Sequence record: NC_007456.1 | Reading direction: 5' to 3' (one strand) | DNA: 39,704 nucleotides | From: Escherichia phage K1F | In this document: in pieces, positions 1-39,704 of the stretch | How the letters are laid out: each line of letters begins with the position of its first letter | Position numbering within the stretch: the first letter of the stretch is position 1 | Notes under the pieces: model-generated | The model's input: the letters and a program-made list of their open reading frames with translations, nothing else | Databases searched by the model: none | Told to the model about the DNA's origin: nothing | Position numbers and translations under genes: made by a program

Positions 1-178
1 TCTCACAGTTCAAGAACCTCAAGTCTCCCCATAGGCCCTCTTTAAGTCCAGACCAAAGGCCCTACCCCAGTCTATCATAAGGTTGGACCGATGGTCAAGA
101 CGTCAGGTCAACGATAGGTCTAGGCTATGGCTTAGGGAAGGACGATAGGTGGTGACTATTGGTCTGTCTCTGAGTCTC
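1..178. repeat. Left direct terminal repeat (DTR), 178 bp, identical to 39527-39704
   Basis: Window start TCTCACAGTTCAAGAACCTC...CTGTCTCTGAGTCTC recurs exactly at the window end; typical of T7-like linear genomes. Confidence 0.95.
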
Positions 179-10935: not shown

Positions 10936-12856
<1,921 letters not shown>

Positions 12857-12920: not shown

Positions 12921-14936
12921 ATGTTTGACCTTAAGGATATTTGGGGTTCGGACATCGAGACCAACGGTCTCCTTGACACCGTGTCCCAGTTCCATTGTGG
13001 GGTCCTGATTAATGCCGAGTCGAATGAGACCCTTAAGTATGGGGTAGCGCCGATGGTCGGTATCGTCGGTGGCTTCAAAGAGTATGTACAGAAGGTGGAA
13101 GAAATTGCTGCAACGCCTACGGGTATGCTGGTCTTCCATAACGGTATCAACTATGACGTCCCGGCTATAGACAAGCTGAAGCGTTTGTACTTTGGGAAAC
13201 GATTTAACTTCCCGAAACACAAGATGATTGATACCTTGGTGCTGGGCCGCTTGATGTATCCCAACATTAAGTTCTCAGACATGGGAGCGGTGAAAGCTGG
13301 TCGTCTGCCACCTAAGATGATGGGACGCCAGTCTCTTGAGGCTTGGGGCTATCGTCTCGGTGAGATGAAAGGTGAATACAAACACGATTACGTTGCCAAA
13401 TGCAAGGCTGAAGGTATCGAATATAAGGCTGGGGACGAATGGTTGTTCCCGTCTCAGGAGATGCTGGACTATAACGTTCAAGACGTTGTGGTCACACTGG
13501 CGTTGTTCAAGAAGTTCCTGACTGACAAGTATTACTTCCAGTCTGAACAGTTCGCTTTCGAACAGATTTATGCGTTGCGTCTGGAACATGATGCTGCGTG
13601 GACCTGTGCTAAGATGGAACGTAACGGCTATCCAATGAACACAGAGATGGTCGAAGGCTTATATCGTGAACTCACCGTCAAACGTGCAGAGTTGCTGGAC
13701 AAGCTGCGTTCGACTTTCGGTAGCTGGTACGCACCAAAGGGAGGCAAGGAGTTCTTCAGGCATCCACGGACAGGTAAGGACCTTCCGAAGTATCCGAGGG
13801 TCGTGTATCCTAAGGTTGGTGGCATCTTTAAGAAGCCGAAGAACAAAGCTCAACGATTAGGTCTTGAACCTTGTGAACGCGATACGCGAGACACGATGGA
13901 GGGAGCACCATTCACACCTATCACTTACGTTGAGTTTAATCCGGGAAGCGGGGACCACTTAGCGAAAGTTCTGATGGAGCGTGGCTGGGAGCCTGTGGAC
14001 TTCACTGACACCGGGAAACCTGTAGTCGATGACGAGACGTTAGAACATGTTAAGTTACCAGACGCAGAGGCTCAGGCTTGCGTAGAGCTGGTCCGTGAGT
14101 ATCTGGTAGTCCAGAAGCGCATAGGTCAGGCTGCTGAAGGTAAGAACGCATGGTTGAAACTTGTAGGGCCAGACGGACGTATGCACGGTTCAATCAACCC
14201 ATGTGGTGCAGTAACCGGACGTGCTACCCATAGTTCACCAAACATGGCTCAGGTCCCGGCTAACGGTGCTCCGTATGGTGAGACTTGCCGTGGTGCTTTC
14301 GGTGCAGCTTGGAACAAGACGGATGGTAAGCCAGACCCTTGGATTCAAGTGGGTGTGGATGCTTCAGGTCTTGAGCTTCGTTGTCTGGGGAACCGAGCGG
14401 CTCCGTTTGATGGTGGTGCCTATGCGAAGACTGTGGTAGAAGGTGACATCCACTGGGCCAACGCAGTAAACGCTGGGTTAGCACCTAACGTCCCACGCGA
14501 TAAGTCGAACCACGACCATGATGCTTTCCGTAATAACGCTAAGACGTTCATCTATGCGTTCCTGTATGGTGCAGGGGCCGCTAAGATTGGACTGATAGTA
14601 GGCGGTGGTAAGAAGGAAGGTTCAGCTCTCATGAAGAAATTCATTGAGGGTACACCAGCCATCAAAGACCTCAGGGAAGCTGTGAGTAATACGTTAATCT
14701 CTGAGTCCAAATGGGTAGACGGTGAGAATATCGTGAAGTGGAAACGCCGCTGGCTTAAAGGCTTGGATGGTCGACGCATCCACATCCGGTCTCCACACTC
14801 AGCACTTAACGCCTTACTTCAAGGTGATGGTGCGGTAGTCTGTAAGCACTGGATTGTTGAGACAGAACGTATGCTCGAAGAGGCCGGGTATGTCCACGGC
14901 TGGGAAGGAGACTTCGCGTACATGGCATGGGTGCAT
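12921..14936 (+). CDS. 5: DNA polymerase (T7 gene 5 homolog), exon 1 (672 codons, ends ...YMAWVH)
   Basis: 3'-5' exo motif DIETNGL; ...FHNG.NYDVPA...EAWGYRLGEMKGEYK...DYNVQDVVVT...; ORF track stops at TAA 14937-14939, the first intron codon. Confidence 0.9.
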
Positions 14937-15534
14937 TAACATCATGGTGCACATTAAATCTGGTGAACTCGGTGAACTCCTAATGGGACAATACCGAGCC
15001 AAGCCATAGGGAGGATGTATGAGAGGCAAGAAGTTAATTCTTGAGGCCACTGAGACTGGCTGCATAATCCCTACGTCACATAAATTGAATCAGGATGGAT
15101 ACTTCCGAAAGAGGACTAACGGTGTCCTTGAGATGTATCATAGAACTGTATGGATTAAAGCTAATGGTCCAATACCTGAAGGTTTCGAAGTAGACCACAA
15201 GTGTCGTAATAGAGCTTGTTGCAACGTCGAACATCTACAAGTATTAGACCGTGACTCACACTTAGTCAAGACCAACCAAGAGCGATACGCTGCTAGGAAG
15301 CTAGAAGCACGAGACTACTGGGTAGAGACTGGGTGTACAGGAACGAAGTTAGCCGAAGTATTCAATGTGTCGTTCTCAGCCGCCTGTGGGTGGATTAGAG
15401 AGTGGAAGGCGTAGAGACTATCCGAAAGGAGTAGGGCCGTGGGTGAGATTCCCACGTAACCCGAAGCGCCAGACAGTCACCTCAAAGACTGATGATATAG
15501 TCCGACACTTCCAGTAATGGGAGAATACAGAAAG
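14937..15534 (+). mobile_element. Group I-type intron (598 bp) in DNA polymerase gene, carrying an HNH endonuclease ORF
   Basis: Exon 1 ends in U (14936), intron ends in G (15534); P1-like pairing of exon GUGCAU (14931-14936) with GUGCAC (14947-14952); exons join in frame to give WVH|DELQIACRT. Confidence 0.7.
15019..15414 (+). CDS. HNH homing endonuclease (131 aa) within the intron
   Basis: HNH motif EVDHKCRNRACCNVEHLQV; strong SD AGGGAGGA; free-standing ORF. Confidence 0.85.
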   Translation: MRGKKLILEATETGCIIPTSHKLNQDGYFRKRTNGVLEMYHRTVWIKANGPIPEGFEVDHKCRNRACCNVEHLQVLDRDSHLVKTNQERYAARKLEARDYWVETGCTGTKLAEVFNVSFSAACGWIREWKA

Positions 15535-15690
15535 GATGAGTTACAGATTGCTTGTCGTACTCAAGAAATAGCAGAACGTACAGTCGAAATTGCGCAGCTA
15601 GCTATGCGTAAGGTGGGTGAGTTCTATAACTTTAAATGTGTCCTTGATACCGAAGGTAAGATTGGACCAACTTGGAAGGAGTGTCACTAA
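15535..15690 (+). CDS. 5: DNA polymerase exon 2 (51 codons: DELQIACRTQEIAERTVEIAQLAMRKVGEFYNFKCVLDTEGKIGPTWKECH)
   Basis: Matches remembered T7 DNA polymerase C-terminus (...VGCRTEEIAQ...WNFRCLLDTEGKMGPNWAICH); no SD before in-frame ATG 15517. Confidence 0.75.
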   Translation, partial: DELQIACRTQEIAERTVEIAQLAMRKVGEFYNFKCVLDTEGKIGPTWKECH

Positions 15691-15938
15691 TGGCTATGAC
15701 CAAACGTATGCGAGTTTCGTTCTCGCTGGGTGCTGTGTTGTTAACTGAAAACGTGGAGAACTTCAAGAAGACTCTCTGCGAGCTAAGCCGTAAGGTCCTC
15801 AACGGAGAGAAGACCACTGGTTTTGAGCGTAAGATGGTAGAGGTTGGTGTGACTGAAGGTCTGGAAGCTGTAGTCGAACTGGTCTTCAAGAAAAGTATTT
15901 GTCGACAGTCTGAAAGAAGACCTGAGCAACTACTCTGA
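15690..15938 (+). CDS. gp5.5-like protein (82 aa)
   Basis: MAMTKRMRVSF... resembles T7 gp5.5 N-terminus; AAGGAG SD; ATG overlaps polymerase stop (TAATG). Confidence 0.6.
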   Translation: MAMTKRMRVSFSLGAVLLTENVENFKKTLCELSRKVLNGEKTTGFERKMVEVGVTEGLEAVVELVFKKSICRQSERRPEQLL

Positions 15939-39526: not shown

Positions 39527-39704
39527 TCTCACAGTTCAAGAACCTCAAGTCTCCCCATAGGCCCTCTTTAAGTCCAGACCAAAGGCCCTACCCCAGTCTA
39601 TCATAAGGTTGGACCGATGGTCAAGACGTCAGGTCAACGATAGGTCTAGGCTATGGCTTAGGGAAGGACGATAGGTGGTGACTATTGGTCTGTCTCTGAG
39701 TCTC
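39527..39704. repeat. Right direct terminal repeat (DTR), 178 bp
   Basis: Exact copy of 1-178. Confidence 0.95.

Follow-up and report, generated by a model that had tools for sequence, protein, structure and literature searches.

A group I intron of the ΦI/W31 family interrupting Escherichia phage K1F's DNA polymerase gene

Group I introns in phage DNA polymerase genes

The closest described relatives of the element analysed here, a 598-nt insertion (14937-15534) in the DNA polymerase gene (gene 5) of Escherichia phage K1F, are the gene 5 introns of phages ΦI and W31. In PMC3428280 these introns are assigned to subgroup IA2, with an open reading frame (ORF) in the P6a element and an insertion point at site 881 (Escherichia coli Pol I numbering; the His of VHDE), and they are reported there, for Bonocora and Shub (2004; J Bacteriol 186:8153), to self-splice in vitro as well as in vivo. 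The K1F insertion was analysed in the complete sequence record NC_007456.1, which is referred to below as the window (39,704 bp; Kayfunavirus, Autographiviridae); all coordinates are those of the window, and all features described lie on its plus strand. An earlier note on this DNA, made from the sequence alone, had proposed that gene 5 is split here by a group I intron carrying an HNH homing endonuclease gene, and had suspected that this was known biology. On both counts the note was borne out. Very probably, the insertion is a mobile self-splicing IA2 group I intron whose P6a element holds an HNH endonuclease gene. As it belongs to the family of gene 5 introns described for ΦI and W31, it is already known: in GenBank, the gene 5 annotations of K1F (AM084414), 13a (EU734174) and Kaz2018 (MN510331) are joins of two pieces, and a paper of 2016 already names the K1F intron. 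The feature was called correctly but is nothing new in kind, being a textbook combination of a selfish intron and an endonuclease that occupy the best conserved codons of an essential gene.

The orthology with the ΦI intron can be followed along the whole element. A contig that encodes exactly the I-TslI protein (L155) contains a 601-nt intron at the same site as K1F, with GUGCAU before the intron in both cases and GAUGAG (K1F) or GAUGAA (L155) after it. The two introns are 79% identical overall, with 87% identity in the 5' part of the ribozyme, 93% in the 3' part and 73.5% in the ORF at the nucleotide level. K1F shares with ΦI and W31 the host gene, the insertion site after the His of motif C, the IA2 architecture with P7.1 and P7.2, the lack of a P2 helix and the location of the ORF in P6a, and with ΦI also an HNH protein of 131 aa and an intron of almost the same length (598 versus 601 nt). 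In contrast, ΦI and W31 are T7-like phages of the Teseptimavirus whereas K1F is a Kayfunavirus, the P1 loop of K1F has 3 nt fewer, and the K1F intron opens directly with an in-frame stop, as its first three bases are UAA. Moreover, splicing has been reported for the ΦI/W31 introns, whereas the K1F copy is known here from its sequence.

More distant systems share only part of these traits. The td, nrdB and sunY introns of phage T4 are also self-splicing group I introns in essential genes of nucleotide or DNA metabolism, in which the ribozyme loops out an ORF and a stop codon in frame follows shortly after the 5' splice site, but their host genes are different and their endonucleases are of the GIY-YIG type (I-TevI, I-TevII) or of another HNH type (I-TevIII). 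The introns of SPO1 (with I-HmuI), SP82, Bastille, Pf-WMP3 (with I-PfoP3I) and phiL7 are IA2 introns with an HNH gene in P6a that interrupt conserved motifs of family A polymerases, although at sites 674 and 676 instead of 881, and their endonucleases are longer and only distantly related to that of K1F (PMC3428280). In T3, phiYeO3-12 and relatives, an intron-less gene 5 is directly followed by free-standing HNH genes of the gene 5.3 type, which are linked to 'collaborative homing' in work cited in PMC3984707 and PMC10448857. These T3-type genes accompany the same polymerase gene, and their products have a homologous HNH core, 42-48% identical to gp5.3 (the product of the K1F intron ORF), with the conserved motifs SHK-N-DGYFR and C-N-x-x-H-L. 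Unlike the gp5.3 gene, they lie outside any intron, after the stop codon that ends an uninterrupted gene 5, and the proteins are devoid of the C-terminal tail of ~40 aa, resembling a helix-turn-helix, that is present in gp5.3 and I-TslI.

Exons, ribozyme and endonuclease gene in K1F

The gene 5 ORF of K1F (12921-14939) ends with ...YMAWVH followed by TAA at 14937-14939, and the reading frame resumes at 15535, exactly as the earlier note had described. Exon 1, taken from the ORF list (12921-14936), has 672 codons, the last of them the CAU of ...AWVH; it matches Pfam DNA_pol_A (1e-27) and aligns with T7 gp5. Exon 2 (15535-15690) consists of 51 codons (DELQIACRT...GPTWKECH) and a stop codon at 15688-15690, and its PHROG match is the C-terminus of the DNA polymerase. 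The intervening 598 nt are preceded by the exon-terminal U14936 and have G15534 as their last base, again in agreement with the earlier reading. When position 14936 was joined to 15535, a protein of 723 aa was obtained that aligned end to end with T7 DNA polymerase (PDB 6n7w; E 1e-271). This alignment is gap-free across the junction (...FAYMAWVH followed by DE[L/I]Q...), so the break divides polymerase motif C (VH/DE) between its His and its catalytic Asp. In family A polymerases this Asp is a catalytic metal ligand, and as it falls after the break, the 672-aa product of an unspliced RNA should be inactive.

An exact empty site was found in the intron-less phage Peacock, in which exon 1 abuts exon 2 with precisely 598 bp fewer. 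In RNA letters, this site reads ...GGGUUCAC directly followed by GAUGAG..., and over a longer stretch ...CATGGCATGGGTTCAC followed by GATGAGCTACAG...; in DNA letters, the intron-less gene 5 of Peacock or SH3 reads ...GGGTTCAC followed by GATGAG.... The predicted spliced junction in K1F, 598 nt shorter than the genomic sequence, joins ...GGGUGCAU to GAUGAGUU....

The limits of the group I intron (14937-15534), with the in-frame UAA at its start and ωG15534 at its end, are supported by the empty site, by covariation and by a match to the Rfam group I intron model RF00028. The P1 hairpin (14931-14952) appears in the minimum free energy (MFE) fold as a pairing of 14931-14938 (exonic GUGCAU plus UA of the intron) with 14945-14952 (UGGUGCAC). 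Within it the exon bases GUGCAU (14931-14936) pair with the intron bases GUGCAC (14947-14952), and the helix runs two pairs further into the intron. The 5' splice site lies after U14936, which forms a U·G wobble with G14947; a P1 helix with such a U-G pair had been proposed before, and the wobble was found in 16/16 sequences of related introns. Three of the eight P1 pairs show compensatory changes among these introns. The P1 loop contains the putative P10 guide segment CAUC (14940-14943), complementary to the first four bases of exon 2, GAUG (15535-15538).

Every core helix is fully paired in K1F. The 5' strand of P3, UCUGGUG (14959-14965), pairs with CGCCAGA (15467-15473), a helix supported by covariation, with 5 of its 7 pairs compensatory and 97.5% of the cells paired. 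It is followed by the P4-P5 domain (14968-14998), with P4 formed by 14968-14973 and 14993-14998 and P5 by 14978-14981 and 14985-14988, and by the 5' strands of P6 and P6a (14999-15007), where CC (14999-15000) has GG (15408-15409) as partner and CCAU (15004-15007) has GUGG (15402-15405). In the related intron of contig L012, P6a is ACUGU/ACAGU. The 5' strand of P7, GACUAU (15416-15421), pairs with AUAGUC (15497-15502), forming a pseudoknot with P3, and this 3' strand is part of a near-invariant core, GAUAUAGUCCGACAC. Between P7 and the 3' strand of P3 lie P7.1 (15422-15429, with a GAAA loop), the linker A-GUA and P7.2 (15434-15462), which together span 15422-15462. The P8 hairpin AGUC...GACU (15475-15490) has compensatory changes in all three counted pairs, and the P9 hairpin CUUCC/GGGAG (15508-15523), in four of five; the P9 loop contains an AUG at 15517. 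A P2 helix is absent from the K1F intron and present in some relatives. The presence of P7.1 and P7.2 between P7 and P3', linked by G-U-A, is the hallmark of subgroup IA2 (PMC3428280), and the K1F intron was assigned to this subgroup because its P7.1 and P7.2 are joined by an invariant GUA. The MFE fold of 15413-15534 alone recovers P7, P7.1, P7.2, P8 and P9 (z = -2.7), and that of 14927-15030 recovers P1, P4 and P5.

The ORF looped out in P6a, the gp5.3 gene (15019-15414), encodes a protein of 131 aa and is preceded by its own Shine-Dalgarno sequence, GGGAGG (15009-15014), located 4 nt before the AUG. The earlier identification of this ORF as an HNH endonuclease gene with its own ribosome binding site was upheld by matches to Pfam HNH_3 (PF13392; 7e-16, 58 bits, with a curated cut-off of 24.8) and to PHROG 6254 'HNH endonuclease' (3e-46). 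A protein comparison, which had been suggested as a check, aligned gp5.3 gap-free and over the full length with I-TslI of phage ΦI (AAV53690.1), at 79% identity. The HNH motifs (D-H60, C-x4-C-C-N-x2-H and H81-x3-N), with the catalytic His/Asn and Cys residues, are intact and are conserved in 15 relatives, both intron-borne and free-standing. The gene is tightly fitted into the ribozyme: it starts right after the 5' strand of P6a, its last codons provide the 3' strands of P6a and P6, and its UAG stop ends one base upstream of the 5' strand of P7. The protein gp5.3 is the I-TslI of K1F, and it presumably cuts or nicks intron-less gene 5 alleles near the insertion site.

A covariance-model search of the insert, also suggested in the earlier note, produced a match to RF00028 at 14927-15524 that covers the model in full length (positions 1-253; E 3.4e-7, 35.7 bits). 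Related introns score 35-50 bits with the same model. As the K1F score is below the curated threshold of this family, a comparative test of the structure was made. For this, related introns were gathered from GenBank phages and IMG/VR contigs, the ORF was removed, 17 distinct 'mini-introns' were aligned with MAFFT (alignment A2), and the IA2 structure was written over the alignment columns. Standard pairs occupied 95.9% of the cells in the proposed structure, compared with 34-48% when the partners were slid by 1-3 columns and with a mean of 82.1% in shuffled alignments. Likewise, 28 of the 56 proposed pairs were changed on both sides (5-10 with slid partners, 16.7 as the shuffled mean), and the covariation score was 0.41, a value that was reached by 0 of 500 shuffles, compared with ≤0.08 for slid partners and a shuffled mean of 0.143. 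The pattern formed by the junction, the empty site and the covariation is far beyond chance.

The same alignment revealed how individual helices have changed. P3 was found as UCUGG/CCAGA, CUGGG/CCCAG, CUUUG/CAAAG, GUUGG/CCAAC and CCCGG/CCGGG; in phage Arash, two P7 pairs are compensatory; and the sequences of P8 and P9 turn over almost wholly among relatives with the pairing kept. Both P7.1 pairs (2/2) and four of the nine P7.2 pairs are compensatory, and the GUA linker is invariant in A2. The terminal G is present in all 17 introns, and the guide sequence tracks the exon (GUGCAU/GUGCAC, GUCCAU/GUGGAC, AUGCAU/GUGCAU). The pair counts for P5 and for the outer part of P7.2 are probably underestimates, because these variable hairpins were aligned by MAFFT. 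The P3-P7-P9 core, the foldability of which had been treated as decisive in the earlier note, thus both folds and co-varies.

Distribution and movement of the intron

Phage Kaz2018 (MN510331) is a different phage from K1F, 94.5% identical to it across the region, with an intron of the same length and at the same coordinates. Over 14934-15540, a segment that comprises the intron with 3 upstream and 6 downstream exon bases, the two phages have 0 differences, whereas the flanks are 88-92% identical per 200 nt, and differences recur there every ~6-10 nt, for the most part in the third position of a codon. Identical introns within flanks that have diverged by ~10% are a population-genetic signature of recent lateral transfer of the intron. 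Kaz2018 has GUU where K1F has GUG, which results in a U-C mismatch in P1, and the obligatory CAU is present; intron-less Kayfunavirus alleles read GUU CAC before and GAU GAG after the insertion point.

The intron was found in 38 phage records across Kayfunavirus, Teseptimavirus and others, and many close relatives have an uninterrupted gene 5. Together with the identity between K1F and Kaz2018, this patchy distribution is indirect evidence that the endonuclease may promote inheritance of the intron. Related introns also occupy the same VH/DE site in polymerases that are only 24-33% identical to K1F gp5 (contigs L012-L014). Free-standing homologues of gp5.3 were detected right after an intact gene 5 in the IMG/VR contigs L011 and L015-L029; the T3-type genes are those of L025-L029, where the polymerase genes read AUU or AUA followed by CAC and then GAC GAA at the intron site. 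Decayed versions of the endonuclease gene exist as well. In L060 (11008-11426) the intron is reduced to 419 nt by deletion of the HNH core (~aa 31-95), and in L012 (1489-1902) the endonuclease has a stop at codon 9 and is otherwise 59% identical to gp5.3; in both, the core helices of the ribozyme still pair. Decayed endonuclease genes within ribozymes that still pair fit the homing-cycle idea.

A copy at another genomic position was observed in Citrobacter phage NS1 (L005, MN715150.2), the own gene 5 of which is uninterrupted. Its positions 814-1479 correspond to 14886-15534 of the window, that is, to the complete intron preceded by 51 nt of exon 1; the copy ends exactly at the 3' splice site and is located in the early region, after a homologue of K1F 1-822. 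The HNH protein of NS1 is 100% identical to that of K1F, and its ribozyme has indels and core substitutions, including a 10-nt insert at P6 and a P7 3' strand that reads GATATACTCC. The junction between intron and early region was found in no other record searched. The copy is either an ectopic transposition that gave rise to a free-standing endonuclease gene or an assembly artefact. It is also conceivable, but in our view rather improbable, that the intron is spreading now among Kayfunavirus with almost no co-conversion of the exons and is able to move to non-allelic sites, as in NS1. If so, an unusual transfer route would be implied, for example through nick-initiated repair in which the conversion tract is very short, or through a step mediated by RNA, and NS1 would have captured a mobile intron in the course of turning into a free-standing homing endonuclease gene.

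Two observations concern introns outside the gene 5 site. Salmonella phage Arash (L033, OQ632216, 180 kb) has an ORF-less relative of the intron at ~1375-1593, 74% identical in its 3' half and with the compensatory changes in P7 mentioned above, which is inserted at a different site of a family A polymerase; in its record the exons bear the names 'DNA polymerase nu' and 'DNA polymerase theta', and a small 'hypothetical protein' is annotated within the intron. A core motif of 15 nt, GATATAGTCCGACAC, corresponding to the P7 3' strand plus J7/9, was present in at least 120 viral contigs (IMG/VR loci L034-L153). In most of them it appears to belong to IA2-type introns other than this one, located in different genes and phage groups, and the motif can conveniently serve as an exact-match probe for introns of this class. 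Inserts of 161 bp and 375 bp near gene 5 (216Ecol046PP, Salmonella ST17) were rejected as candidates, as they consist of extra small genes between genes 5 and 5.5 and are not related to the intron.

Alternatives, mechanism and annotation

An interrupted polymerase gene could also arise if a free-standing HNH gene had split gene 5 in such a way that two polypeptides, of 672 aa and ~51-57 aa, assemble without RNA splicing. Genes split by homing endonucleases are known in phages, according to a title cited in PMC10448857; the K1F record in GenBank lists a separate ORF, 'gp5.4', over exon 2, and in several records of related phages the DNA polymerase is annotated as two separate coding sequences (CDSs). 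However, a plain insertion of an endonuclease gene would need no ribozyme, whereas a complete, co-varying group I ribozyme flanks the K1F ORF; the only in-frame AUG available to the second piece is that in the P9 loop, which has no Shine-Dalgarno sequence; the break separates the His from the catalytic Asp of motif C; and the orthologous ΦI/W31 introns are reported to splice. We give this gene-in-pieces arrangement hardly any credence. Excision at the protein level, by an intein or otherwise after translation, would suit an insertion in a highly conserved catalytic motif, which is typical for inteins, but it is already refuted by the reading frames: the insert opens with an in-frame UAA, and the ORF of the endonuclease is separate from the exons, with a start codon and a Shine-Dalgarno sequence of its own. 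Pfam found no Hint or intein domain either.

The element could instead be a decayed relic in which the ribozyme or the endonuclease is inactive, with poor splicing or splicing dependent on host or phage factors, and with homing lost. Endonuclease decay does occur among related introns, as in L060 and L012, and the Kaz2018 mismatch lies inside P1. On the other side, the core helices and the HNH motifs of K1F are intact, and the complete identity of the intron in Kaz2018 despite the divergence of the flanks implies a recent spread. Gene 5 is essential in T7-like phages and K1F is propagated in the laboratory, so its splicing must be adequate. We therefore consider such a relic very unlikely.

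Several results weigh against the interpretation as a mobile self-splicing intron. The RF00028 score is below the curated gathering threshold of 50 bits, and a scan of the whole window at the default threshold returns nothing, the intron being detected only in the E-value mode; this threshold is a curation cut-off and not a structural feature, and the low score is probably due to the 396-nt ORF insertion and the missing P2. The 5' half of the intron (14927-15030) shows no significant gain in stability over shuffled sequence (z = -1.05), and P10 has only 4 bp and is poorly conserved across the related introns. A PDB sequence search with gp5.3 gave only chance matches, with no solved-structure relative detectable. 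The exact 723-aa spliced protein occurs among database records only through the GenBank join annotation, and transcript evidence for the junction was not found. Finally, the splicing results for ΦI and W31 are taken second-hand from citing papers.

On the interpretation as a mobile self-splicing intron, catalysis and splicing in K1F, as well as the activity and target site of the endonuclease, would follow the ΦI/W31 system. Gene 5 would be transcribed through the intron as a single pre-mRNA, and ribosomes translating exon 1 would halt at the UAA formed by intron bases 1-3, leaving the ribozyme free to fold. The RNA would then adopt the P1 to P9 structure with the P3/P7 pseudoknot and the P7.1/P7.2 extension. 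An external guanosine would attack after U14936, held in the U·G pair of P1, and the freed exon 1 would attack in turn after ωG15534, aligned by the P10 pairing of 14940-14943 with 15535-15538. Ligation of CAU to GAU would restore motif C and the 723-aa polymerase. In parallel, the Shine-Dalgarno sequence within the intron would direct translation of gp5.3, which in mixed infections may cut or nick intron-less gene 5 alleles near the site, so that repair from the intron-bearing copy would spread the intron by homing.

Two annotated ORFs of this region look like annotation artefacts. The 'gp5.4' of K1F (15517-15690) is exon 2 read from the in-frame AUG in the P9 loop, and it matches only the C-terminus of DNA polymerases; the 50-aa 'hypothetical protein' of Kaz2018 (15365-15517) falls within the intron and matches no family. 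Two separate DNA polymerase CDSs, with no join, are listed for Ro45lw, CLB_P1, Aeromonas PT2, Edwardsiella DT115P1 and Yersinia vB_Yep_15. Regarding the K1F record itself, the window is 99.96% identical to AM084414 over the compared region, with 16 differing positions, 0 of them within the intron. Single-base indels between the two records were found at 12631, 2243/2257, 5698, 7856, 8610/8630, 10111 and 15898. The extra G at 12631 replaces the canonical primase/helicase C-terminus ...WENNDF* by a 21-aa longer read-through tail, with the ORF ending at 12699, and the extra T at 15898 shortens gp5.5. Sequencing errors in one or the other K1F record probably account for these indels. The first 178 bases of NS1 match both ends of the window (1-178 and 39527-39704); as this points to direct terminal repeats of the T7 type, the window represents the complete linear genome.

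The main importance of the finding is for annotation, as the intron escapes the default threshold of Rfam and many related records still list two polymerase CDSs. The true product of gene 5 is a 723-aa polymerase encoded by two exons. Beyond K1F, the intron-borne, free-standing and decayed versions of the endonuclease illustrate published ideas on the homing cycle and on 'collaborative homing', the latter reportedly put forward by Bonocora and Shub in 2009.

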